Part shown: positions 5,469-24,997 of the stretch, piece after piece | Layout: each line of letters opens with the position of its first letter | How positions within the stretch are numbered: the first letter of the stretch is position 1 | Source of the DNA: Promethearchaeia archaeon | GTDB taxonomy: Archaea > Asgardarchaeota > Lokiarchaeia > Sigyniarchaeales > SOKP01 | Direction: 5' to 3' | NCBI GenBank assembly: GCA_046483985.1 | Contig: JAWOCD010000085.1 | Span: forward strand, 8,957 to 72,956 | DNA length: 64,000 nucleotides | Made by a program: the position numbers and the translations under genes | Notes under the pieces: generated by a model | Database searches by the model: none | What the model was told of the DNA's origin: nothing | What the model saw: only the letters and a program-made list of their open reading frames with translations

Positions 5469-6002
5469 GTGTCAAATAAAAAGATTGGTGCTGTAAAAAT
5501 CGATTTTCTTAATTCCAGAATAGAAATGAGCCCTAATATGAAAATTTTAAAGAAAAAGGCTCAATCTATTACTGATTCCGATGAGAACGAGGAAGTAACT
5601 ATTTTCTTTGAAATTGAGGATAACGACTTGACTAAAACAGAGTATAAAGCATATTCTTTATTTAAGGATGAAATTGACGATGACGAGCCTTTTGATCTGG
5701 AGAATCCGTGGTATAAAGATGAATCTGTCGCGGTTCCAAATTCCGGCAACGCTTCCACACCTAAAAAAGAGCCAGAACCCCAACCAGAACCTAAAAAAGA
5801 GCCAGAACCCCAACCAGAACCAACATCTCCGGAAATACAAAAGCTCCAAGCGAAATTAACTAAAATTAAAAATATGATCACCGAGTTAGATCAGAAATTT
5901 AAAGAAGGAAAAATTGAACAGAAAGCATTTTTAAAGAAAAAAGATTATCTATCCCAGAAAGCTGGGTCTCTAATGGGGCAGATTGAAAAATTAAAAGGAT
6001 AA
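5469..6002 (+). CDS. hypothetical acidic/coiled-coil protein with PKKEPEPQPE tandem repeat and SHOCT-like C-terminus
   Basis: 177-aa ORF with a GTG start. It contains the in-frame 30-bp x2 repeat. The C-terminal KFKEGKIEQKAFLKKKDYL resembles the SHOCT short C-terminal domain pattern. No enzymatic motifs seen. Confidence 0.45.
   Translation: MSNKKIGAVKIDFLNSRIEMSPNMKILKKKAQSITDSDENEEVTIFFEIEDNDLTKTEYKAYSLFKDEIDDDEPFDLENPWYKDESVAVPNSGNASTPKKEPEPQPEPKKEPEPQPEPTSPEIQKLQAKLTKIKNMITELDQKFKEGKIEQKAFLKKKDYLSQKAGSLMGQIEKLKG
5761..5820 (+). repeat. perfect 30-bp tandem duplication (CTAAAAAAGAGCCAGAACCCCAACCAGAAC x2), in frame
   Basis: Read directly from the sequence. It encodes PKKEPEPQPE twice. Confidence 0.95.
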
Positions 6003-7314: not shown

Positions 7315-7539
7315 ATTTTTATATTCATTCTCCTACCTAATTTTTAAAAATTCTCTTATAAATTTTTACCTAAGAAAAACTTTAAATAAGAATTAAATTT
7401 TAGTCTTTAATGAAGTAGGAATAGTTACTCAAAAATTAGGTATATAAGACGTGAGATATTGATTTTTACTTCATATTATATTAATTATGATATTGCTATA
7501 TATGACAGAAGGTATAAATTATAACTTTAAAAAAAGGAC

Positions 7540-10500
7540 ATGACTACAGAAGACGAAGCTAAGATCAAGCAAGGGAGTATAGCCCAGTTCATGCGTAAGC
7601 GTACGCAATTGGTAGGTTTTGATATGGGATACTGGAAGCATGTACAATATGCTGCCGAGTTTCTTGATAATGCGCTCGATGCCATTGAAGCATACCAATG
7701 GAGACAATTAAAAGAGGATTCTAAATACCAATATTCGCTCGATCAAGAAATCTATTTGGAAAATCTTTCCATTATTCAAGAAGAAAAGAAGGATCAGAAT
7801 TCTCAAGACCTCGATAAAGAAGCAAAAGATACCTTAATGCAAGAAGTAGGCATTAAACCCGTTGATGAAGAAGAGGCTCAAAAGCAACCAGAAAAAACTG
7901 AGGAGGGGGAGGGTATGGTCGTGGAAATGCAAGACGAGATAGAGATCGAGCAAGAGGTGGAAAATATCATTAAGGATATGGAAAGCCTTATCCAGCCCGT
8001 TGAAAACGTAAACCTCATAGATAAAGAGCCAATTGTGATTATCAGGATGACTGAGTCGGAAGCTGCTTCCTTCCTTACAGCAGAAATGAGTACGAAAAAC
8101 GTGATGTCCTATAAATTTGAGGTGTTTGATAATGGTGCAGGGATGCCCGAGATTGATTTGGAGAAATTTGGAAAATACCTTGCCTCCTCGAAATCGTTTC
8201 AGCTTAAACAAACCAGAGGCTCTCAAGGTTTTGGAGCGCCGAGTGCATTCAGTGATGCTCAAAATACCACAGGAAAACCCGTTGTAACTGTATCAAAGTC
8301 ATTGAATCAAATATACGGGATTATCTCGGAGTTTTTTACTACCTCAAAAAATGAGAAAAAATATTTAATCCCTCCCACCGAAATTGATGCACCTTTTCTT
8401 CATGGAACCTATGTGAAGCTTGAGTTTTTGAATATCAAATATGTGAGGGGGTATGTGGATACATATGTTAAGGAAACTGCCTTAATGAACCCGCATGTGA
8501 CTCTTGTCTATATTGACCCCTATGGGGATGAATACATATTTCCCAGAAAGACCGAATCATTTCCGGACAAGCCAAAATATGCTAAGCCACATCCTTCTTC
8601 TACCAACATTGGAGACCTCCAAGATCTTTTAGCAAAATCAGATAATTTAACAATTTCAGCTTTTCTTCAAGATAATTTTGTCAGAATAAGTAATAATACT
8701 GCAAAGGAAATATTAGATTTAGCAGAGCGGGATTTACAAGATAAATTAAATTTTCTTTTATTAGACGATGGATATATTGTAAAGGCAGAAAAGAAGGGAG
8801 AAGATATTTATTACGCCCGGGTTGAAAAACGAGTTTATGGAAGATCTAAACGAAAAAGAGATAAATTAATCATATATCAAGTTACTTCAGATTCATTATT
8901 GGAACTGTATTGGGAAACTATAGACCAATATGATAAATTTAATAAAGAGATTGATAAGATTAAAGAACAGATTAAAAAGAAAAACACAAAAATTGAAGAG
9001 GCCGATACCAAAAAGGCAGCCAGAAAGATTAGAAAAAAGAAGAAAAAATTATTAAAAGAGATAGATGGTATTCGGGACAAGAAAGACAAATTACGCGCAG
9101 ATATGAATGAGATTTTTAAGGGCTTGGATGAGGGGATAAAAGAGATCAAAAACAAATCTGAAGTGAATGAAATTTCCGATTTAGTATCGGAAGTAGAGAT
9201 AACAGAAACAAGACCCCAAGAATTAAGCAGTGACCAATTTAATTCCTTATTTAGAGCATTTAAATCAGTGAAATACATGTCACCGCCAACGGACACCGTA
9301 GTCCCTGTAGGTGCCACGATTTTGGAAAATACGATGATTAAGGAATTAGGACTTAAAGTATCTGACAATACTGAAGATTTTGGTCGACCTGTCGAGGAGG
9401 TCCATCCAATTGAAGAAAATATTTTAAAATTCAAAAAAAAGAAATTAAAACGAGAAGATCCGAATTTAACTGAAGATGAATTGGGGGAACTCTCTGTCGA
9501 CCATGGAGAAATAGAGAGTTTAAGTACCCAAATTTTGGACTCCTTTTATGAGTTAGAGAATGGGGCTGAAAATGGAGGAAAGGATTTTGGTTCTTCATTA
9601 ACATATTTAATGGATTCCGCAGAAATTGAGGAAAGAGAAAATTATAAGGAAGTTTTTCAATTCTTTACGGAAACTTATACTATGGATGACGATTTTGTAG
9701 GTGGAGAAACGAGAAAACCCACCAGCGGAAAAGGACTTGCTTTTGTTGTGGAAGGGGTTTTAGCTTATTCAAAAAAGAATATTGAGACTCCAAATCGCTC
9801 TCGTGATGTACTTTCAAGATTTGTAAACCGGACACCAAAACTCCGGGATAGTGCTGATTGTGCAATAACTAAGGCTGTGCAGAGCGTGAATTGGAAAAAT
9901 TATAACTTGGATTCCTTTGATAATGGATTACCTAAAGGTCCAATCAAACTCCTGGTAAATGTGTCTGGTCCGTTTGTTCACCTGATGTTTAAATCTCAAT
10001 CAAAAAATTCTTTGGCAGAAGACGAAAACTTGATGAGTGAAATCAAGTATTGTCTGGAAGCGATTGGAAGGAGATTAAGAGTCTATCTTAACAGAAGAGC
10101 GGAAATTAAGAAAAAGGAAAAACGCGCGAATTTAATTGAAAAATATATTCCCAAATTCGTAGAAAGCATTTATAACATAGCGGAAACAGGCAACAGTAAA
10201 TTCACTGAAAAGTTTTCTGAAGAAGATCTCAAAGCCTTGATGAGAAAGGGAATCGGAGGGAAATCCAAACCGGAGAAAGAAGAAGGATTGAAAAAGAAAA
10301 CCAAAGAAAAAGTTAAAAGACCCAAAAAGAAAGGTAAGGTTGATTTAGATAATTTAGAGGATCTCACCGTGAAGGAGCTTCGAGCATTGGGGGATAAACA
10401 TGATATAAGGCTGAAATCACGACTTCGGAAGGACGAAATTATAGAAAAGATTCAAAAAGAACTCGGTAAACCAGCTAAGGAGGAGAAAGAAAAGAAGGAG

Positions 10501-11091
10501 GCGGAGAGGAAACCTAAGAAAGAGGCGAGGAAAGCCAAGGAGGCCGAAGAGAAGGAAGTTAAAGTTGATTTAGATAATTTAGAGGATCTCACCGTGAAGG
10601 AGCTTCGAACATTGGGGGATAAACATGATATAAGGCTGAAATCACGACTTCGGAAGGACGAAATTATAGAAAAGATTCAAAAAGAACTCGGTAAACCAGC
10701 TAAGGAGGAGAAAGAAAAGAAAAAGAAAAGGAAACGGGAACCCGTAGAAGTGGTACCCGAAGAAATTAAGAAGGCAAAAGATCGTCTCAAAAGAATGAAA
10801 GGAAAAGCACCAAAAGAGAAACCAAAAAAGAAACCAAAAAAGAAAGAACCAATTAAACCTCCAAAACCTTCCAAGACCAAACAGACCAAATTGCCGGCGA
10901 TAACAGATGAAAAGATACTCTCTGTTCTGAATAACGAGGAGTGGCAAACAATAAAGCATTTAATCTTTAAATTGAAAATCCGGGACATGATGGATGCCCG
11001 TTATCTGCAAATTAAACTAAGAGAGTTAACTCGTAAAGGAAAAGCTTTAGTGGATATTAAGAAAGGAAAAAAACATTGGAAACTAAAATAG
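7540..11091 (+). CDS. top6B: DNA topoisomerase VI subunit B, unusually long (1183 aa) with inserts and a C-terminal extension
   Basis: GHKL/Bergerat motifs EFLDNALDA (N box), VFDNGAGMP (G1) and TRGSQGFGA (G2). H2TH-like STNIGDLQDLLAKSDNLTISAFL. Transducer-like RFVNRTPKLRDSADCAITKAV...VNWKNY...LLVNVSGPFVHLMFKSQSK. It lies directly upstream of top6A. Confidence 0.85.
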   Translation: MTTEDEAKIKQGSIAQFMRKRTQLVGFDMGYWKHVQYAAEFLDNALDAIEAYQWRQLKEDSKYQYSLDQEIYLENLSIIQEEKKDQNSQDLDKEAKDTLMQEVGIKPVDEEEAQKQPEKTEEGEGMVVEMQDEIEIEQEVENIIKDMESLIQPVENVNLIDKEPIVIIRMTESEAASFLTAEMSTKNVMSYKFEVFDNGAGMPEIDLEKFGKYLASSKSFQLKQTRGSQGFGAPSAFSDAQNTTGKPVVTVSKSLNQIYGIISEFFTTSKNEKKYLIPPTEIDAPFLHGTYVKLEFLNIKYVRGYVDTYVKETALMNPHVTLVYIDPYGDEYIFPRKTESFPDKPKYAKPHPSSTNIGDLQDLLAKSDNLTISAFLQDNFVRISNNTAKEILDLAERDLQDKLNFLLLDDGYIVKAEKKGEDIYYARVEKRVYGRSKRKRDKLIIYQVTSDSLLELYWETIDQYDKFNKEIDKIKEQIKKKNTKIEEADTKKAARKIRKKKKKLLKEIDGIRDKKDKLRADMNEIFKGLDEGIKEIKNKSEVNEISDLVSEVEITETRPQELSSDQFNSLFRAFKSVKYMSPPTDTVVPVGATILENTMIKELGLKVSDNTEDFGRPVEEVHPIEENILKFKKKKLKREDPNLTEDELGELSVDHGEIESLSTQILDSFYELENGAENGGKDFGSSLTYLMDSAEIEERENYKEVFQFFTETYTMDDDFVGGETRKPTSGKGLAFVVEGVLAYSKKNIETPNRSRDVLSRFVNRTPKLRDSADCAITKAVQSVNWKNYNLDSFDNGLPKGPIKLLVNVSGPFVHLMFKSQSKNSLAEDENLMSEIKYCLEAIGRRLRVYLNRRAEIKKKEKRANLIEKYIPKFVESIYNIAETGNSKFTEKFSEEDLKALMRKGIGGKSKPEKEEGLKKKTKEKVKRPKKKGKVDLDNLEDLTVKELRALGDKHDIRLKSRLRKDEIIEKIQKELGKPAKEEKEKKEAERKPKKEARKAKEAEEKEVKVDLDNLEDLTVKELRTLGDKHDIRLKSRLRKDEIIEKIQKELGKPAKEEKEKKKKRKREPVEVVPEEIKKAKDRLKRMKGKAPKEKPKKKPKKKEPIKPPKPSKTKQTKLPAITDEKILSVLNNEEWQTIKHLIFKLKIRDMMDARYLQIKLRELTRKGKALVDIKKGKKHWKLK
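10339..10721 (+). repeat. two about 158-bp direct repeat copies (10339-10496 and 10564-10721), period 225 bp, one mismatch seen
   Basis: Read directly from the sequence. Each copy encodes VDLDNLEDLTVKELR(A/T)LGDKHDIRLKSRLRKDEIIEKIQKELGKPAKEEKEKK within top6B. Confidence 0.9.
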
Positions 11092-11109: not shown

Positions 11110-12300
11110 ATGATTATGGCTAAAAAGAAGAATATGGAAAAGTGGGACTTAGAGGCAACTAAAGAACTATTAAAGGAAAAACTGGAGGGAGATGAAGAAA
11201 AAGATGTAAATCTTCCCGAAAATACCGTAAAAATAGATGATCTTAACAGAGAACAAGCGTTAGAGCGTTTATATTCCATCGTAGATGAATTAATAAAACA
11301 AATATATAAACACGGCAGACCAACCGTAAAATTACCATCAAGATCAAGTTCTAATATTATTTGGGATGAAGAGAATGACTTGTTATTACTTGGACAACAG
11401 ATGAAGAAAAAGCATTTTCATTCTCTTACCAGTGTAGAAGATATTACGAGATTGATACGTGTACTAGAAATTATTGATGAATTGTTAGAAAAAGATATGC
11501 ACGCGACAAAGCGTGAAATTTATTATTCAGACGTAAAATTATTCAAAGATCAAAAGAACAGCGATAGAAGTATAGAGGATGTAGCAACTATGCTCTATAC
11601 TACCAGAAATTCTACCCATGTAGTTGCATCAGCTCGTGGTTCATGTGTGGGACGATTACGGATTCGGGATAAAAATGATATTATCGATTTAGAGCGTCTA
11701 GGTAGTGGAGGGTGGAGTATAAGCCCGATGTTAGATAATATTGAAATCATTGAATCGGATGCGGAATTCATACTTGTTGTGGAGAAAGATGCGGCTATGA
11801 TGCGATTAGCTGAAGCTCGCTTTTGGCGGGATTATCCTTGTATTATCCTCACCGCTCAAGGGGTGGGAAATGTGGCAGTTCGTATGTTTCTAAAAAGATT
11901 AAGTAAAGAACTTAAGCTTCCCGTATTCAGCTTGGTTGATAGTGATCCATATGGGCATTACATCCATAGTGTATATATGAGAGGATCAAAACGGTTAAGT
12001 TATGAAACTCCTTTTTTAGCAACCCCTGATATCAAATTGCTGGGCGTTTTAACCAGAGACTTAGATAAATATAACATTCCAGATAATTGTAGATTAAAAA
12101 TGAATAAAAAAGACCTCAAAAGGACCAGAGAAATGCTTGAAGAAGACTTTGTGAAGAATAATGAGAAATGGCAAAAAGATTTAAAATTGGCTTTAGACCT
12201 AAAAGTAAAAGCTGAGATTCAAGCACTCTCAAATCATGGATTTGAATTTTTAACGGAAGAATATCTCCCCGAAAAACTAACAACGGGTGATTGGATATGA
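11110..12300 (+). CDS. top6A: DNA topoisomerase VI subunit A (Spo11 homologue)
   Basis: KREIYYSD (catalytic Tyr region) and Toprim motifs VVEKDAAMMRL and VDSDPYGHYI. At 396 aa it is typical in length. It follows top6B after an 18-bp gap. Confidence 0.9.
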   Translation: MIMAKKKNMEKWDLEATKELLKEKLEGDEEKDVNLPENTVKIDDLNREQALERLYSIVDELIKQIYKHGRPTVKLPSRSSSNIIWDEENDLLLLGQQMKKKHFHSLTSVEDITRLIRVLEIIDELLEKDMHATKREIYYSDVKLFKDQKNSDRSIEDVATMLYTTRNSTHVVASARGSCVGRLRIRDKNDIIDLERLGSGGWSISPMLDNIEIIESDAEFILVVEKDAAMMRLAEARFWRDYPCIILTAQGVGNVAVRMFLKRLSKELKLPVFSLVDSDPYGHYIHSVYMRGSKRLSYETPFLATPDIKLLGVLTRDLDKYNIPDNCRLKMNKKDLKRTREMLEEDFVKNNEKWQKDLKLALDLKVKAEIQALSNHGFEFLTEEYLPEKLTTGDWI

Positions 12301-12815
12301 GAACATTCCATAAGAAAGACGGAGGCATAGTTCAACTTATTGGAAAAGAAAAAATGGAATCTTGGTCCGTTGAATTACCGCTGATATTTATTGAATATAT
12401 TCGAAGCAATAAGCTTGAATCATATGATGATGTTAAAAAAGATGTAGAGGCATACCTAGATGAGATTTTGGAAGATGTGGCAATACCGAGATTGATTGAA
12501 ATATTAGAAGGAGATGATAATGAAGAAATTATTGCCGCTCTGGAGAGAATTAAGAATATTGCTGATGAAAACTTGGATATGACAAAACCGATTAAACCTT
12601 ATCTTGAAGATCTTAAGAATAACCAAAACAAAGAAATTAAGGGTATTACTAATGATATCTTAAAGCTATTTGAAAGGGAAAAGCGGCGTAAAGAACTAAA
12701 TAAGCGAAGAAAAGTTATGAAGAAAAAGGAACAACAATTTATGGACGGTAAAATTAGTGCTGAGGAATATGCAAAAGCACGGAAGGATTATATCGAATTT
12801 AGAGATAATCGATAG
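12297..12815 (+). CDS. hypothetical protein (HEAT-like helix pair, K/E-rich, SHOCT-like C-terminus), translationally coupled to top6A
   Basis: The ATG at 12297 overlaps the top6A TGA in an ATGA arrangement; the ORF-track start at 12291 is TTG. IPRLIEILEGDDNEEIIAALERIKNIA looks like a HEAT-type repeat. C-terminal MDGKISAEEYAKARKDYIEF fits the SHOCT pattern. Confidence 0.55.
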   Translation: MRTFHKKDGGIVQLIGKEKMESWSVELPLIFIEYIRSNKLESYDDVKKDVEAYLDEILEDVAIPRLIEILEGDDNEEIIAALERIKNIADENLDMTKPIKPYLEDLKNNQNKEIKGITNDILKLFEREKRRKELNKRRKVMKKKEQQFMDGKISAEEYAKARKDYIEFRDNR

Positions 12816-17605: not shown

Positions 17606-17747
17606 TTCTTAAGTACACTTGGATAGTTTTAATAAATTAGATTAATTCTATAATATTAACTTTTATTATTAATCTGGAAATTAAAGCTTATAATTTTTGG
17701 AGATTATCTTGATTTTTGAAAGAGCCTATTTCCCACAAGATCTCAAT

Positions 17748-20700
17748 ATGTTTAATAATACTACGTCCATTGTCCTATTTATTATCTTTTTAGCGGCGTT
17801 TGCATCTGGGTTCTTTTTAATTTATCGCCAAGTAGCCCTAGTGAAGAAGGGAGAATTTGAAATCCTAGATACATTGCAGTGTGTATTATACGGATTTATT
17901 TTCAGTATGGCTATAATGGTTGTGATGGGCATGGCTTTTATTTTTGCCGTTAATACTCAAAGCTTTTGGGAACCTACTCCTTTGAATCCCAACCCTCCTA
18001 CCCCTCCCGAGATTAACCCCCTATGGTTAATCTTTCCAGTCTTCTTTTGCTTAGCTTATCTTACTTTTTATCCCCTAATTGATTTTCTTTTTATTGCCTT
18101 AAGTAAGGAATCCGACAAAGGATTAACAATATTTCATAGATATATTGGAAATTATATAATCAATACAACGGATAGTAAAATTTTTTCTGTAATTTCTGCA
18201 ATATGCTTCTATTTGGGGGTATTTATTTTGCCGCCATATCTTCTTTATTTATTTCTTGATTTACCCTTACTTGTAATCTTTATTACATGGATATTAGGAT
18301 ATCCCTTGATGGTTTTAACGTTTTATGGAGCAAAAGGCTGGGTTGCGGGATTTTCCAATACAATATTTCATATTGAACAGCGTTCATTTTTTCTAGGGTT
18401 TGAAGATCCTGAGAGAGTGATGGAAGAGGCAAAAGATTTTCCGAACGTTACGGGCCCCCGGATTTTAATGGGAATGATGCTTTTTGTTTTTGTCTGGATT
18501 TGGATTTCAATGTTCCAAACTTTATCATTTTATTTTTCGGGAGATATGCCAATTTCTCCCTACTCCTTTGCTGGACTTGTGTTTGTAACGTTAATATTTG
18601 GAGTTATTGGATATTTTACTCGTTATTGGAGTAGACAGATAAAATATCGTAGTATAGACATTTCATTTGCGGGGTATTTGATGGCATGTATTGGAATTAA
18701 TGTATTAGCAAATTTTCTTATAGTTAATGCCAATAAATTGGAAAGCTCTTTTAATTATACTATTATTGGACTATATGAGTTAGTCCCTAATTATCTCTCA
18801 CTTGCTTTTGCTGCAGTAATTGAAGAAGTTTTTCTGGTCACTTTTATTTGTTATTTTCTCTTTGCCAAGACAGATTTTACCCAAAATTTGAAATATTCCA
18901 AGATAAATGAATGTGGGCAGATCTTTGATCCCATCCCATTGTTTAATTTTCTTAGAAGTAATGATCCAAAAATTAGAAAGCAAGCTGAAGAAACCGTATT
19001 GTTAATGTTCGAACGAATTCCTTTAAAAGAAGATGTTGATCTGAATAAAAACATTTTTAAAAATACTCTTATTGACGGCTTATGTGATCTGAACCCATAC
19101 GCTCAGAAAGTAAGTTACCAAATTTTAACCCAATTGGAGAGAGATGTACCTGATCTTGTTTTACCGTGGATAATTGAGAATTTAGAATCTCCAAATTATG
19201 ACAAAAGTATTCCCTTTGCACGTTCTTTAACAACTGCAGATATCGATCTTGTTAAAAAAGTACCGCCAGAGATCATATTCAATCTTATCCAAGATTTAGA
19301 ATGGAGGCTTAAATTGATTGGGCTGGATATTTTATCCCGTTTAGCAAAAGTAGAAGATGAAATTGTTTTAACGCTTTTGATGAAAAAGCATTTATTAAAC
19401 GATCTTGTAAATGATCCCGATGGAGAGGTTCAAGTTAAGATATTAAATATTCTTGCTGACACAGAGGTGGTGCTTCCTCTTACTTCCATAATTGATAGAT
19501 TGGATGACTCTAATTCCCAGATAAAAGCCGCCGCCATCAGAAATATTAAAAATATTAAAGAGGAAAATCTTGACTCACAAGTGGTCTCTAAACTGATCCC
19601 ACTCATGAGAGATCCTTCAAGTGAAGTAAGAGCTTCTGTATTTGAAGTTCTTGCTAAAATTGGTCATTTTCAGAAATATTTTATACCAAATCTTCCTTTC
19701 TTGGAAGGCTTAACAGATCTCAATAAAGAGGTAAGGAAGGCCTCTATCATCGCACTTGAACGATATTTTGATGAACAACCCGAATCCCTTGATTTAGATA
19801 TGATAATTAATAGAATTGATCCCAATAATGAAGAAATCGTAAATAGTGCGTTAACTCTCCTTGGGAGATTATGGGATAAAAACCCAGAAAAGATTCTCAC
19901 CACCTTACTTGGATTTATAAAATTGGAGAATCAATCGCTCAAAGAAAATATTTCTAATATATTGGTTGAGAGATATGAGTCAAATCCAGATTTAATTATA
20001 GATAATCTCATAGAAATACCAGATGTATCGAAATTTATCACAAAAGGAATAATTACAAAGACTCTTATTAAAATTGGCGAGTTAGACCCTCACAATGTAA
20101 TTCCAAAATTGGTTTCCTTTTTAAATTCGAAAAATAAGGATACTAAATTAAATGCGATAAGAGCTTTAGAGGAATTAGTCAGTAATTTTCCCGATAAGGT
20201 TAAATTAAAACCATTTTTAGTCATTCTGCGGCAAGAAAAAAATAAAAAAATAAAAAAAGAGGCAGCCAAAGTAATATCTAAAGTCGCCCAAGTGGAACCA
20301 AATGCTTTAAAACCGCTTGTTTCCGTGATTTTGCAAGCAATGCATGAACAAGAAAATTCAGTTAAACTAGTTTTGGGAAAATCATTATTACAGATCTCTC
20401 AAGAATCCCCTGAAATCCTTCCCGTCCGTCCCATTATAAATTTATACAATGATGAAGATTCATTTATTCGGGAAACGGCTGCAAAAACTCTCGGAAATAT
20501 AGGATACAAAGCACCTCGAGAATGTATTAGAGCCTTATTAGACAAAGGATTAAAAGATGAGGAATGGAATGTAAGAGAAGCTTCTGTTACTAGTTTAGGG
20601 GATCTAATAGAATATGTAGATAATAAAGAGATGCTCATATCGAGTTTAGTGAAACTTCTTTCTGATGAACAAATGTGGGTGCGACGCTCTGCCTTAAATA

Positions 20701-21143
20701 TTTTAGCCGATCTTAAAAATTTGGGTCCAAAAGATTTGCCATTTACTACACTAAAAGAGATAATTAAAACTTCAGATGATAAGGTCAAAGCTGCGGGGAC
20801 AAAATTGTTGAAAATCTATAGAGACAAAATTGATCAAGTTTTTATGCTAGCTATTGAATTATTAGATCATGAGAATGAAATTGTAAGAGATAGCATGATG
20901 AATTCGTTGACCGAAATAATTCAAGATATGGGATTGGACCTCCTAATTCCAAAACTTCTCAAGAATCTTAGTGATGAGCACTCACTTACTTTACAACGCT
21001 CCATTGCTCGAATCTTGGGAAGGACTGTAAAATATGAAAATGAGAAACTCAAAAAACGAGTCATTTCGCTCTTGAAAATTCGCTGCGAAATGAGTCAAGA
21101 TCCGGTCATTTGTAAAATTTTAAATGAATTAAGGGAAAGCTAA
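17748..21143 (+). CDS. polytopic membrane protein with large C-terminal HEAT-repeat (PBS-lyase-type) domain
   Basis: The first ~390 aa contain many hydrophobic helices. The C-terminal ~700 aa contain repeated D-x-x-x-x-VR-x-x-A-x-x-x-L motifs (DPSSEVRASVFEVLAKIG, DEDSFIRETAAKTLGNIG, DEEWNVREASVTSLGDL, DEQMWVRRSALNILADL). The ATG at 17748 is preferred over the TTG at 17697. Confidence 0.65.
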   Translation: MFNNTTSIVLFIIFLAAFASGFFLIYRQVALVKKGEFEILDTLQCVLYGFIFSMAIMVVMGMAFIFAVNTQSFWEPTPLNPNPPTPPEINPLWLIFPVFFCLAYLTFYPLIDFLFIALSKESDKGLTIFHRYIGNYIINTTDSKIFSVISAICFYLGVFILPPYLLYLFLDLPLLVIFITWILGYPLMVLTFYGAKGWVAGFSNTIFHIEQRSFFLGFEDPERVMEEAKDFPNVTGPRILMGMMLFVFVWIWISMFQTLSFYFSGDMPISPYSFAGLVFVTLIFGVIGYFTRYWSRQIKYRSIDISFAGYLMACIGINVLANFLIVNANKLESSFNYTIIGLYELVPNYLSLAFAAVIEEVFLVTFICYFLFAKTDFTQNLKYSKINECGQIFDPIPLFNFLRSNDPKIRKQAEETVLLMFERIPLKEDVDLNKNIFKNTLIDGLCDLNPYAQKVSYQILTQLERDVPDLVLPWIIENLESPNYDKSIPFARSLTTADIDLVKKVPPEIIFNLIQDLEWRLKLIGLDILSRLAKVEDEIVLTLLMKKHLLNDLVNDPDGEVQVKILNILADTEVVLPLTSIIDRLDDSNSQIKAAAIRNIKNIKEENLDSQVVSKLIPLMRDPSSEVRASVFEVLAKIGHFQKYFIPNLPFLEGLTDLNKEVRKASIIALERYFDEQPESLDLDMIINRIDPNNEEIVNSALTLLGRLWDKNPEKILTTLLGFIKLENQSLKENISNILVERYESNPDLIIDNLIEIPDVSKFITKGIITKTLIKIGELDPHNVIPKLVSFLNSKNKDTKLNAIRALEELVSNFPDKVKLKPFLVILRQEKNKKIKKEAAKVISKVAQVEPNALKPLVSVILQAMHEQENSVKLVLGKSLLQISQESPEILPVRPIINLYNDEDSFIRETAAKTLGNIGYKAPRECIRALLDKGLKDEEWNVREASVTSLGDLIEYVDNKEMLISSLVKLLSDEQMWVRRSALNILADLKNLGPKDLPFTTLKEIIKTSDDKVKAAGTKLLKIYRDKIDQVFMLAIELLDHENEIVRDSMMNSLTEIIQDMGLDLLIPKLLKNLSDEHSLTLQRSIARILGRTVKYENEKLKKRVISLLKIRCEMSQDPVICKILNELRES

Positions 21144-21298: not shown

Positions 21299-24200
21299 AT
21301 GACGACTCCAAGTTCTAAACCCACGAAGCCTATGAATCCCACCCAAGAATTTGAGGACTTTTTCCGGTATTATTTAGAGAAGCCTGGGGTTTATAAGTAT
21401 CATGAACAGATCAAACGGATTGATTCTAAAGGTGAAAATACCCTTGTGATCTTATATGAAGATCTCTTGAATCATAAATATAAACTTGCAAAAATGTTGG
21501 AAGAAGATCCGGAAAATATGCTGGAACACGCAGTTAAAGCTTTCAAAAATCTTCTTAAGTTTGAATCCGGGGGAAAGTTAAACCATGAACGATATTTTGT
21601 CAGGGTGGCCACCAAAGACGATAAAAGTCCGTTAACGGTTCCAATCCGACAAATGCGCGCCGAAAACATAGATAACTTGGTTTGGTTTAAAGGAATACTG
21701 ATTCGCAGCTCAAAAATTCGTCCAAAATTGACAAAAGCCTCTTTTGAATGCCTCTTATGCGGGACGCAATTCGAAGTGGTGCAGTTAACTTCAAAAATTA
21801 AATGGCCAAAATTCTGTATCAATAAACAATGTAAAGCGAAGGCGCAAAATGATTTTAAATTAATTACAAGAGATTCCGAGTTTATAGATTGGCAGAGTAT
21901 TACCATCCAAGAGATTCCAGAAGACTTACCCGCTGGCCGCATCCCACGCTCGGTCCAAGCAATCCTTACTCATGATCTAGTGGATTATGTCAAACCGGGT
22001 GATCGAGTATCGATAATGGGAATCTATAAATCCGTTATTGCGGGCTCCATTCGAAGCAACAATTCTAATCTGTTTAAAACGTATATCAAGGTTAATTACG
22101 TTGATCCAGAAGATAAAAGCGATTTAGATATTGACATTTCCAAAGACGACAAAAAAGCCATTCAACAACTTTCACAGGAACCGATGGTTCAAAGAAAGAT
22201 CTCACGCTCAATCGCACCTCAAATATTTGGAAGAGAGCAACTTAAAATGGCTTGCGCATTAAGTTTGTTTGGAGGTACCAAGAAAAAAAAACCAGGAGGG
22301 GGGTGGAAACGGGGGGATATTCATGTATTATTCGTTGGTGACCCAGGAACCGGAAAGAGTGAAATCATTAAATCGGCAGTCGAAGTTTCACCACGGGGGT
22401 TATATACCTCTGGAAAAGGAGCTTCCGCAGTAGGTCTGACCGCTGCAGTTATCAAAGATGCGGATACGGGACAGATGAATTTGGAGGCCGGCGCCATTGT
22501 ATTAGCTAACGGAGGAGTTGCAGCTATTGACGAGTTTGATAAAATGGATAAAGCAGACAGGTCCGCGCTCCATGAGGCGATGGAACAACAGTCCTATCAT
22601 TACGACACGGAAATATTAGATGTGAACGGGAAAAAAATCAAAATCGGGAAATATGTTGATGATTTGTTGGAAAACAATGCTGACGATGTAGTTAAAGGCG
22701 TTAATTGTGAAATCCTCCCTCATGAAGATATAGGCCTTTATACAACAGATTTTCAAAAAATTTATAAAACTAAGATACACCGTGTGAGTCGCCATAAATC
22801 TCCAGATAGATTTTACCAAATCAAATTTTCAAACGGAAGAACTATCAAGGTTACCCCTGAACATCCTATTTTCGTATTTAGAAATGGAAAACTTGCCACA
22901 GTAGATGCTAAGGATTGTAAAGTAAATGATTTTATCCCAATTCCTGAATATCTTCCAAATTCATCTCAGCCGATCATGCTAGGTTCTACTCGTTTTAAAC
23001 CGCGCCCTACCGCTGAGGAAATCGTATTTCCCGAGGTATTGACTCCTAATTTAGCCCGTATATTGGGTTATCTTATTGCCGAGGGGCATTCTTATGTTGG
23101 CTCATCAACAGAAATAGGATTTACCACTAGGGATGAGAAATTACTGGATGAGTTTTACAACCTAATGGAACAAGTTTTCCAAATCTTGCCGAACATTAAT
23201 CGACGAGATGATGGTAGATGTACTTTGAGATATACCTCTGTAGAGTTATATAAATGGTTTAAACTCAATTTCCCCGAAATAATGGTTAAATCGATTCATA
23301 AAAGGATTCCTAAAAAAATTATGGGCGCATCGAAGGAAATTGCTGAAGAATTCATAAAGACTTCATTTAAAGGGGATGGAAGTGTTGAATCAACATCTAT
23401 CTGCTATAAAACGGCATGTAAAGGATTTTCCGAGGATTATCAAGACTTATTACTAAAATTAGGAATTCAATCTCGCATTATAGTTGATTCTAATAATGAT
23501 TCATTCAATGTTTATATAAGAGGACAATCTCTAATTGATTTTTTTCATATAATAGTGGAAAAAGACGATAGGCGATACAAACAAATCAAGAACATAATTA
23601 AACTCAACAAAACAGAAACTAATCACCATGATATCTTTCCCACCTCAATTATTGAGGAAATACTACAAATTAAAAAAGCACTTTCAATGAAGATTACAAG
23701 ACCTTATTGGCGATACTCAAAAAAAGGAGAGGGAATCACTCGTAATAACTTAATTAAACAGATCCGCAAGATAGAATCCCGGATCGGGAAAATCAAAGAT
23801 TATATTGGTAAGGAAAAAACCATAAAGGCTATTAAAAAGTCGGGCTTTTCCCAGCAAAAAATATCTGAAATAGCCTCGGTAACCCGTTCTAATATCGATT
23901 ACTATGGAAAAGGAGGTTACGATAAATTTAAAGGAAATGAACTGAACCGAAAGGTGGTATTTTCCGTATTAGACCATTTTGAGGATTTAGAAAAGCGAAT
24001 TCAGAGAATAAAAAACTTGGTAAGTTCGGAAATATTATGGGATAGGATAAAAAGTATAAAAGTAATAAAAAATAAAGGAGAGAATTATAGACCCTACGTT
24101 TACGACCTCACTGTAGAGCCCACTCACACATTCATCAGTAACGGATTAGTTCTGCATAATACAGTTAGCATAGCCAAGGCGGGCATTGTAGCCACTTTAA

Positions 24201-24997
24201 AAGCGGAAACTGCGGTGGTGGCGGCAGCAAACCCTCATTTTGGGAGATATGACAGTTATAAGACTCCCACGCAAAATATCAGGATGCCACCTTCCTTGCT
24301 CTCCAGATTTGATTTGATCTTTGTGGTAAAGGATAAACCTGATAAGTCCTACGATGCCCAACTTGCTGAATTTATCTTAAAAAATGCAATGGGAAAATTT
24401 GGAGAAGATGAAGATGGTAAAGGAAAAAGCGAGTCACCAATCCAACATGAGCTCTTGAAGAAGTATATTAAGCATGCAAGGCGTAATTGCAAACCGATTC
24501 TGACTCATGATGCAAAGGAACGGATAAAAGAGTATTATTTGGATCTTCGGGGAAAATCTGACAGCGAAGAGGCGATTATTTCGATTTTAGCCAGAAATCT
24601 TGATGCGCTTATCCGGATGAGCGAAGCATATGCCAAAATGGCGTTGAGAGAAAAAGTTCTTGAGGATGATGTGAAGGAAGTGATTAAACTGTTTGATAGG
24701 TTTCTCACAGATACAGGATATGACGAGGCGACAGGTAAGATAGATGTAGATAGGATTGTTGCGGGCGAATCGCGAAGTAAATTAAATAAGCTTGAAAATC
24801 TATTAGATCGGATGAAGGAAATGTTTTCGGAGAATAATTGGCAAGAACTTCAAAGGAAAGATATCATTCAAAGCTTAGAATTAGAGGAGGATTTGGATAA
24901 GAAATTTGTCCAAGATGCACTTGAAAATTTGATAAGAGACGGAGATATTTATGAGCCTAAGCCCGGCTATATCAAGTTTACAAGAAAACAAACGTAA
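21299..24997 (+). CDS. mcm: MCM replicative helicase (intein-containing precursor)
   Basis: Zn motif CLLCG...CINKQC, Walker A GDPGTGKSE, Walker B AAIDEFDKM, split HEAMEQQ / TVSIAKAGI motif, arginine finger region SLLSRFDL and a C-terminal winged-helix-like end. The extein total is about 709 aa. Confidence 0.9.
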   Translation: MTTPSSKPTKPMNPTQEFEDFFRYYLEKPGVYKYHEQIKRIDSKGENTLVILYEDLLNHKYKLAKMLEEDPENMLEHAVKAFKNLLKFESGGKLNHERYFVRVATKDDKSPLTVPIRQMRAENIDNLVWFKGILIRSSKIRPKLTKASFECLLCGTQFEVVQLTSKIKWPKFCINKQCKAKAQNDFKLITRDSEFIDWQSITIQEIPEDLPAGRIPRSVQAILTHDLVDYVKPGDRVSIMGIYKSVIAGSIRSNNSNLFKTYIKVNYVDPEDKSDLDIDISKDDKKAIQQLSQEPMVQRKISRSIAPQIFGREQLKMACALSLFGGTKKKKPGGGWKRGDIHVLFVGDPGTGKSEIIKSAVEVSPRGLYTSGKGASAVGLTAAVIKDADTGQMNLEAGAIVLANGGVAAIDEFDKMDKADRSALHEAMEQQSYHYDTEILDVNGKKIKIGKYVDDLLENNADDVVKGVNCEILPHEDIGLYTTDFQKIYKTKIHRVSRHKSPDRFYQIKFSNGRTIKVTPEHPIFVFRNGKLATVDAKDCKVNDFIPIPEYLPNSSQPIMLGSTRFKPRPTAEEIVFPEVLTPNLARILGYLIAEGHSYVGSSTEIGFTTRDEKLLDEFYNLMEQVFQILPNINRRDDGRCTLRYTSVELYKWFKLNFPEIMVKSIHKRIPKKIMGASKEIAEEFIKTSFKGDGSVESTSICYKTACKGFSEDYQDLLLKLGIQSRIIVDSNNDSFNVYIRGQSLIDFFHIIVEKDDRRYKQIKNIIKLNKTETNHHDIFPTSIIEEILQIKKALSMKITRPYWRYSKKGEGITRNNLIKQIRKIESRIGKIKDYIGKEKTIKAIKKSGFSQQKISEIASVTRSNIDYYGKGGYDKFKGNELNRKVVFSVLDHFEDLEKRIQRIKNLVSSEILWDRIKSIKVIKNKGENYRPYVYDLTVEPTHTFISNGLVLHNTVSIAKAGIVATLKAETAVVAAANPHFGRYDSYKTPTQNIRMPPSLLSRFDLIFVVKDKPDKSYDAQLAEFILKNAMGKFGEDEDGKGKSESPIQHELLKKYIKHARRNCKPILTHDAKERIKEYYLDLRGKSDSEEAIISILARNLDALIRMSEAYAKMALREKVLEDDVKEVIKLFDRFLTDTGYDEATGKIDVDRIVAGESRSKLNKLENLLDRMKEMFSENNWQELQRKDIIQSLELEEDLDKKFVQDALENLIRDGDIYEPKPGYIKFTRKQT
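22592..24160 (+). mobile_element. intein (523 aa) with LAGLIDADG homing-endonuclease domain inside mcm
   Basis: The insert begins SYHYDTEILD right after HEAMEQQ and ends NGLVLHN, followed by TVSIAKAG (Ser1, His-Asn terminus, Thr+1). Block B is KVTPEHPIF. The LAGLIDADG motifs are LARILGYLIAEGHS and FIKTSFKGDGSV. Confidence 0.85.

Follow-up and report, generated by a model that had tools for sequence, protein, structure and literature searches.

A long topoisomerase VI B subunit

We analysed a window of 64,000 nucleotides (nt) from a Promethearchaeia archaeon (contig JAWOCD010000085.1), which carries a gene for the B subunit of DNA topoisomerase VI (Top6B). The gene lies at positions 7540-11091 and is an uninterrupted single open reading frame (ORF) of 1183 amino acids (aa). 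All coordinates given here are those of the window, and all genes and features lie on its + strand. A preliminary description made from the sequence had proposed a Top6B of about twice the size of the crystallised enzymes, and our searches bore this out. The protein scored 309.1 bits (cutoff 274) against PRK04184 (NF003218, the NCBIfam equivalog ‘DNA topoisomerase VI subunit B’), matched the Pfam family Topo-VIb_trans (PF09239) with an E-value of 1.1e-27, and aligned to Methanosarcina mazei Top6B (2Q2E_B) at 3.3e-57 in phmmer and, as a full-length model, at 9e-5 in Foldseek. Its score against a second NCBIfam model, TIGR01052, was 295 bits, which falls below the cutoff of 380.7 because the inserts described below split the match. 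An identical protein is deposited at NCBI as ‘MAG: DNA topoisomerase VI subunit B [Promethearchaeia archaeon]’ (MAG, metagenome-assembled genome). The catalytic identity of the protein is ordinary, and its annotation as Top6B pre-exists.

The phmmer alignment to M. mazei falls into four blocks (query 7-50 with 11-54, 195-397 with 78-283, 556-602 with 286-332, and 717-882 with 335-495). We measured the spacing between anchor motifs in about 150 family representatives. From the N box to the G1 box there are 157 residues here, compared with 35-36 in most Top6B representatives. The canonical distances for the remaining intervals are about 202 from the G2 box to PPTD (357 here), about 63 from PPTD to RFxNR (178 here), and 135-250 from RFxNR to the C-terminus (423 here). 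Together with the breaks in the alignment, these spacings lead to three internal inserts plus a long tail, and we regard it as virtually certain that the protein is a genuine Top6B with a GHKL-H2TH-transducer scaffold and four additions. The preliminary description had recognised two inserts, both of which are real, and had overlooked a third, the acidic segment at aa 603-716. Its ‘normal’ length of 530-620 aa suits the two crystallised enzymes but not Top6B in general, as NCBIfam includes Top6B models of 659 aa and 795 aa and many representatives have 700-1500 aa.

Matches to the protein were found in 162 GTDB species-level genomes. Counts of loci given below refer to the best 80 of these 162, and counts of homologues refer to at least 120 protein clusters among the matches listed, with 118 sequences in the alignment. 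Across this family the core segments have a mean pairwise identity of 0.77-0.88. The N-terminal strap and N box (aa 1-54, 7540-7701; EFLDN44ALDA), which align to M. mazei 11-54, are at 0.88. The GHKL ATPase core (8035-8574), recognised by alignment and motifs, contains the G1 box (D197-N-G-A-G) and the G2 box (T225-RGSQGFG); its identity is 0.80 and its length of 180 aa is invariant. All three Bergerat/GHKL motifs (E40-FLDN44-ALDA, D197-NGAG and T225-RGSQGFG) are present and are invariant or nearly so in the 118 homologues. In place of the M. mazei KGRR ‘crossing sensor’ loop the protein has KYVRG (8437-8451, aa 300-304), which is three residues shorter and has Y301 and G304 invariant across the family.

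The H2TH domain comes in two parts, aa 346-397 (8575-8730) and aa 556-602 (9205-9345, with the PPTD motif), which align to M. mazei 235-332 and are split by insert 2. An H2TH unit from Thorarchaeota likewise aligns to two separate parts of the query, 350-401 and 557-588 (6e-9 and 9e-5). Within the domain, R382 (invariant in the family) and K578 (near-invariant) align with K268 and K308, which contact DNA in M. mazei. The transducer (PF09239; aa 717-906, 9688-10257) aligns to M. mazei 335-495 and contains W785-K-N-Y788, the switch lysine K822 opposite M. mazei K435, a long stalk helix and two further helices (DSSP: 829-859, 862-883 and 894-905). N44, D197/G199/G201, the G2-box residues, W785-K-x-Y788 and K822 are all invariant or near-invariant. 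With the ATP motifs, the WKxY motif and the switch lysine conserved, we expect an active ATPase subunit.

Three inserts and a modular tail

Insert 2 (aa 398-555, 8731-9204) interrupts the H2TH domain and was delimited by alignment and by AlphaFold2 (AF2) modelling. Its 158 aa are constant in length (53+77+28 aa) in the 118 aligned homologues, with G434, R440, Y446 and T490 invariant and pairwise identities of 0.49-0.62. In the model, four strands (405-448) form a beta platform that bears a conserved basic loop, EKRVYGRSxKxRDKL. An antiparallel helical hairpin of about 55 Å follows (helices 451-487 and 491-526, 36-37 residues each), and a further strand and helix (539-552) are predicted to lead back to the last H2TH helix. 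Two independent AF2 runs gave the tower a predicted local distance difference test (pLDDT) score of about 90: the full-length model, which is also confident at about 90 over the modules and winged helix of the tail, and a second model covering residues 340-720, which has a pLDDT of 77 overall and over 90 in the tower. The preliminary description had noticed a K/E-rich coiled-coil segment here; the helical insert is real, but it sits inside the H2TH domain and not between the H2TH domain and the transducer. Since R382 and K578, aligned to M. mazei DNA-contact residues, flank insert 2, the modelled tower would sprout from the surface that binds the DNA arms. The LSD1 tower and the topoisomerase IB linker are likewise antiparallel two-helix hairpins that extend from a globular domain, an analogy only given Foldseek E-values of at least 0.24; unlike in those proteins, the hairpin here stands on a beta platform with no recognised counterpart.

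The other two inserts are acidic. Insert 1 (aa 55-165, 7702-8034), defined by the N-to-G1 spacing, is mostly disordered. The enlarged acidic stretch between these boxes had been pointed out before and stands: the 157 residues, in place of 35-36, are 26 per cent D+E and have a net charge of -22. The family mean for insert 1 is -18, its pairwise identity is 0.58, and E135, E137, E139 and V140 are invariant. It ends in an amphipathic helix and an ‘EPIVII’ strand, both common to the Top6Bs of Thorarchaeota, Hodarchaeota and Heimdallarchaeota. In Arabidopsis the GHKL insertion comes after the first strand, whereas in the query it comes before it. Insert 3 (aa 603-716, 9346-9687), defined by the PPTD-to-RFxNR spacing, is helical (helices modelled at a pLDDT of about 80) and lies at the junction between the H2TH domain and the transducer. 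Its net charge is -17 (family mean -15) and its pairwise identity 0.40. The Pfam transducer match begins at profile position 22 here and at position 1 in the Thorarchaeota, Hodarchaeota and Heimdallarchaeota proteins, which is consistent with a separate insert at this junction. Both inserts are acidic throughout the family despite their poor sequence conservation.

Past the transducer is a flexible, K-rich tail of about 300 aa, with linkers that range from 28 to 249 aa in the family. It contains two HeH/Rho_N modules, at aa 938-974 and aa 1013-1049, which belong to the two copies (10327-10496 and 10552-10721) of a tandem duplication of 170 nt. The copies are 98 per cent identical and spaced 225 nt apart. 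Pfam Rho_N matches the two stretches at 45.3 bits (8.7e-12), above its gathering cutoff of 24.9, and Pfam HeH reaches 15.6 bits, under its cutoff of 28.9. Both modules are modelled as helix-extended-helix at pLDDT 88-94 (helices 1019-1028 and 1039-1049 of module 2 at about 88). Duplicated HeH/Rho_N-like modules had been proposed from the start and are present in this genome, but the duplication is not general. Among 120 relatives, ninety-four have a single copy, while five have none, sixteen have two, two have three and three have four; module 2 is the copy that aligns with the module found in nearly all of them. Copies are closer to others in their own protein than to those in other proteins, so amplification appears to have been repeated and recent, and from sequence comparison the duplication here is recent and specific to this genome. 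Relatives have already been annotated with HeH, SAP or Ish1 domains. By analogy with the HeH/SAP/LEM/Rho_N class (PF07498, PF12949 and PF02037), whose Rho_N member the query matches above the gathering score and which here forms variable tandem arrays of 1-4 copies, the modules may bind duplex DNA.

The last 65 aa form a winged helix (aa 1118-1183, 10891-11088), as the preliminary description had suspected. AF2 models it at a pLDDT of about 90 with the topology a1-b1-a2-a3-b2-b3 (DSSP: helices 1123-29, 1138-44 and 1150-65; strands 1136-37, 1169-74 and 1177-82). Foldseek matches have probabilities of 0.99-1.0, root-mean-square deviations of 1.7-2.7 Å and target TM-scores of 0.5-0.78, with weak E-values of 0.2-0.7; they include Sso10a-2, HlyU, the Zalpha and Zbeta domains of ADAR1, the globular domain of histone H1x and SSV1 F-93. 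The domain is found in 119 of the 120 relatives at 65-66 aa, with a pairwise identity of 0.72, nearly at the core level of 0.80-0.85, and it recurs in more divergent long forms at 42-47 per cent identity. We also considered a Zalpha-like (Z-DNA-binding) winged helix and rejected it, as hhalign with a Zalpha sequence gave a probability of 0.3 per cent and the key Tyr is not conserved.

Distribution and comparison with other B subunits

The long form is the norm of the whole Asgard lineage Lokiarchaeia and not peculiar to one genome. The best 120 homologues have 957-1287 aa, with every insert occupied in approximately 100 per cent of them, and most of the best 80 loci span query residues 1-1183, including those on the closed chromosomes CP070831 and CP070805. 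Mis-assembly, fusion of neighbouring genes, or an intein or other mobile insertion within a normal Top6B could also have produced such a protein. The 98-per-cent-identical tandem repeat in the HeH region is of a type that assemblers can mishandle, and several long Top6B representatives elsewhere are probably long through inteins, which are known in Top6 (PMC9348778). However, at least 120 clusters of 1047-1287 aa, drawn from many independent assemblies that include closed chromosomes, have this full-length architecture, and two to four HeH copies are present in 21 of the 120 relatives. We saw no stand-alone homologue of the tail, and short matches were truncated fragments of Top6B. Pfam found no intein, Hint, LAGLIDADG or other endonuclease domain in the whole protein or in the isolated inserts at E-values up to 10. 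An artefactual origin is thus effectively refuted: conservation across clusters and genomes rules out mis-assembly and fusion, and an intein origin of the inserts was rejected on the Pfam results. The preliminary description had named mis-assembly, fusion or unconserved extensions as grounds for abandoning its view, and none of these was found in the clusters or in the best 80 of 162 loci.

We noticed some inconsistent labels among these matches. Many long-form proteins carry the database label ‘hypothetical protein’, and models such as TIGR01052 under-score them. One contig labelled ‘Candidatus Nanopelagicaceae bacterium’ (L030, DATKTW010000133.1) is probably mis-binned, because it bears the entire Lokiarchaeial CoaBC-Top6B-Top6A-ORF172 block described below. 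Other MAGs labelled Hod-, Hermod-, Thor- or Odinarchaeota (L018, L060, L004 and others) have the Loki-type long form at 53-60 per cent identity and share the synteny. The labels of these MAGs may not be reliable, because well-populated Thorarchaeota clusters show a form of 673 aa.

A close point of comparison is M. mazei Top6B (621 aa; PDB 2Q2E; cryo-EM 9O0G/9O8P). It has the same GHKL, H2TH and transducer domains, and the two proteins are alike in the ATP motifs, WKxY, the switch lysine and two of three H2TH DNA-contact residues. The M. mazei gene likewise adjoins that for Top6A, and its product also has an extra part past the transducer. The query differs in its three internal inserts (+121, +155 and +115 residues) and has no counterpart of the M. 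mazei Ig-like C-terminal domain: the aligned part runs to residue 495 of 621, and the model contains no beta-sandwich. In place of that domain is the 300-aa tail with its HeH modules and winged helix. In M. mazei, the G-segment is sharply bent and its arms are bound by the H2TH domain (residues 235-311) and the stalk via R263, K268 and K308 (PMC13040014), and H2TH mutants fail at bending and cleaving short duplexes (PMC5922973).

The Top6Bs of Thorarchaeota (about 673 aa), Hodarchaeota (about 778 aa) and Heimdallarchaeota (about 953 aa) are 42-48 per cent identical to the query. All the Lokiarchaeia, Thorarchaeota, Hodarchaeota and Heimdallarchaeota proteins examined have a distinctive strap/N-box context, the closing helix and strand of insert 1, and a common ‘YLASSKS...RGSQGFGAPSAF’ G2 region. 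Alignment with M. mazei and these Asgard forms supports Top6B, as the preliminary description supposed. The Thorarchaeota and Hodarchaeota proteins are without inserts 2 and 3 (211-212 residues from G2 to PPTD; 65 from PPTD to RFxNR, in Thorarchaeota only). The Heimdall-type proteins (953 and 1271 aa) have no tower, and their H2TH region is instead enlarged by at least three significant tandem H2TH units. These lie at 334-412, 490-564 and 658-734 in the 953-aa protein from Heimdallarchaeota (P0131) and at 550-599, 704-775 and 860-947 in the 1271-aa protein (P0133). The latter begins with a winged-helix-like segment followed by a K/P-rich linker, and one Hodarchaeota Top6B has a K/S-rich N-terminal extension. 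None of the Thorarchaeota, Hodarchaeota or Heimdallarchaeota proteins matched our winged-helix or HeH hidden Markov models.

Published work has described a third helix in the transducer of Asgard TopoVIB together with a C-terminal domain (Brinkmeier et al. 2022, PMC9665070), C-terminal extensions in gyrase-encoding Asgard archaea (Villain et al. 2022, PMC9348778) and, in a 2025 paper, multiple Top6A/B pairs in some Asgard lineages. In the open-access literature we found no description of the Lokiarchaeial architecture of about 1100 aa, its H2TH tower, or its HeH and winged-helix tail, nor, in the sources searched, of HeH-type modules fused to a Topo VI subunit. Eukaryotic TOP6B carries an additional helical region next to its GHKL domain, for which a contact with the opposing GHKL domain has been proposed, and eukaryotic Topo VI has RHL1 and BIN4 as accessory proteins, both of them absent from archaea (Allen et al. 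2024, PMC11302465). The concept is similar in that the type IIB topoisomerase of plants and others depends on additional polypeptides that bind DNA, but the modules of the query are in cis on the B subunit. The preliminary description had likened the extra modules to accessory factors of eukaryotic Topo VI and Spo11 complexes, which may be no more than an analogy: no similarity to RHL1, BIN4 or Spo11 partners surfaced in our general Pfam, NCBIfam and PDB searches, none of which was aimed at RHL1/BIN4.

Neighbouring genes and possible roles of the additions

Upstream of Top6B, the region 7440-7540 is AT-rich, and by eye it contains a TATA-like GGTATATAAG at about 7447 and GGTATAAATTATAAC at about 7511. 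The latter is about 25 nt ahead of the ATG, a spacing that would suit an archaeal transcript with a short leader or none.

Downstream, Top6A (396 aa, 11110-12300; Pfam TOP6A-Spo11_Toprim 4.5e-59, TP6A_N 4e-19) starts 18 nt past the Top6B stop, behind GAGGTG, and the two genes are adjacent in 77 of the 80 related loci. The ATG of the next gene, which encodes a 172-aa ARM/HEAT-like protein (ORF172, 12297-12815), overlaps the Top6A TGA as ATGA. This gene follows Top6A in 72 of the 80 loci. We found 321 homologues of ORF172; every source name that bears an organism is Lokiarchaeial or Promethearchaeial, and a Pfam domain was found in none of the 321. A profile search against the PDB matched residues 54-129 to designed armadillo-repeat proteins and importin-alpha (E 2e-9), and further features of the protein are a K/R-rich helix and a C-terminus, ‘GKISAEEYAKARK’, that resembles SHOCT. 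The armadillo-repeat fold is known to bind extended K/R-rich peptides. ORF172 is a candidate third component of Topo VI and may bind the K-rich tail of Top6B. The order CoaBC-Top6B-Top6A-ORF172 is retained in 72-77 of the 80 loci, and an extended order with a phosphoribosyltransferase-like gene after ORF172 is retained in 66-77.

We think it probable that this is a genuine, functional Lokiarchaeial Top6B whose additions supply extra DNA or chromatin contacts near the surface that holds the G-segment arms. Top6B would be co-transcribed with Top6A. The scaffold carries a largely disordered, acidic segment ahead of the first GHKL strand, with a helix common to Asgard Top6Bs, and a predicted rigid tower of fixed length rising from the middle of the H2TH domain, made up of a beta platform with a basic loop and a 55 Å antiparallel coiled-coil hairpin. 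To these are added an acidic helical segment where the H2TH domain meets the transducer and a flexible lysine-rich tail with one to four HeH/SAP-type modules and a strongly conserved terminal winged helix. The basic loop and hairpin probably lengthen or reshape the DNA-arm surface, and the tethered HeH modules and winged helix probably raise avidity for duplex DNA or chromatin. Such avidity would tune substrate choice or localisation, like the C-terminal domains of other type II topoisomerases, and inserts 1 and 3, with their conserved negative charge, might counterbalance or gate the basic elements. The additions bear signs of selection in the invariant length and residues of insert 2, the winged-helix identity of 0.72 and the retained acidity of inserts 1 and 3. 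H2TH elaboration and basic tethers also recur across Asgard lineages, which argues for function over drift.

Several observations weigh against this explanation. The full-length AF2 model has a mean pLDDT of only 61.6 and is poor over the core. Foldseek found no significant neighbour of the tower in the PDB (best E 0.24; the top non-significant ones were the LSD1 tower, CorA, ESCRT-III hairpins and the topoisomerase I linker), and the lysine run of the hairpin, which the preliminary description rightly reported for this genome, is unique to it, the family hairpin having a net charge of only about +4. Among relatives the tail varies in net charge from -55 to +33, and a tail that binds DNA by simple electrostatics is therefore not conserved. 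Neither a profile search against the PDB nor Pfam scans of each member assigned the winged helix to a sequence family, and winged helices can also serve protein-protein contacts. Inserts 1 and 3 are low in complexity and poorly conserved, and are possibly near-neutral.

If the additions are instead mainly protein-protein modules, the tower, winged helix and/or K-rich tail would recruit partners (possibly ORF172, chromatin proteins or SMC-type complexes) or bridge B subunits at ATP-gate closure, in a multi-subunit machine functionally like Topo VI-RHL1-BIN4. We consider this unlikely. It has in its favour the translational coupling of ORF172 to Top6A, conserved in 72 of 80 loci, the armadillo-repeat match of ORF172 alongside a K-rich tail, and the protein-binding hairpins, such as the LSD1 tower, at the top of the non-significant fold neighbours. 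The proposed contact between the extra helical region of eukaryotic topo VI-B and the opposing GHKL domain (PMC11302465) points the same way. On the other hand, the armadillo-like match spans no more than about 75 residues, DNA is the typical ligand of HeH/SAP modules and basic winged helices, and the tower is placed between residues aligned to M. mazei DNA contacts. It is more doubtful still that the inserts and tail are largely non-adaptive, as low-complexity charged segments and surface-loop insertions tolerated through drift. Inserts 1 and 3 and the linkers would fit such an origin, with pairwise identities of 0.29-0.58, variable lengths and mostly disordered or low-confidence models; the N-to-G1 loop has been expanded independently in other lineages (e.g. 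DPANN representatives), and HeH copy number varies from 0 to 4. Drift accounts poorly, however, for the strictly fixed length, invariant residues and confident fold of insert 2, for the conserved charge sign of inserts 1 and 3, or for a winged helix that 119 of 120 relatives and divergent long forms possess and whose conservation nearly matches that of the catalytic core.

Extra DNA or chromatin contacts could be part of a larger scheme, which we put forward only as speculation and think unlikely as a whole. Lokiarchaeial Topo VI might be a chromatin-tethered machine of three gene products, in which the Top6B tower and tail act with ORF172, which might clamp the lysine-rich tail, and substitute in cis for the trans functions of RHL1 and BIN4. 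Asgard lineages would then have repeatedly re-engineered the H2TH domain (the tower in Lokiarchaeia, tandem H2TH units in Heimdallarchaeota) for histone-packaged or larger genomes.

Both the Spo11/TOPOVIBL machinery of meiotic breaks and plant Topo VI descend from Topo VI, and among prokaryotes the Asgard archaea are most closely related to eukaryotes. The Lokiarchaeial protein offers a natural experiment in how accessory DNA-binding functions get added to a type IIB topoisomerase, and it gives concrete constructs for biochemistry and cryo-EM.

Elsewhere in the window, the gene at 17697-21143 encodes a 1148-aa HEAT/ARM-repeat protein that matches condensin Cnd1, adaptin N-terminal and TOG-domain profiles. 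The MCM helicase gene (21299-24997, 1232 aa) contains an intein with a LAGLIDADG endonuclease domain. Upstream of Top6B, a 177-aa ORF (5469-6002) has a PEPQPEPKKE tandem repeat and a weak match to Vps23_core (E 0.017), and was present in two of the 80 related loci.

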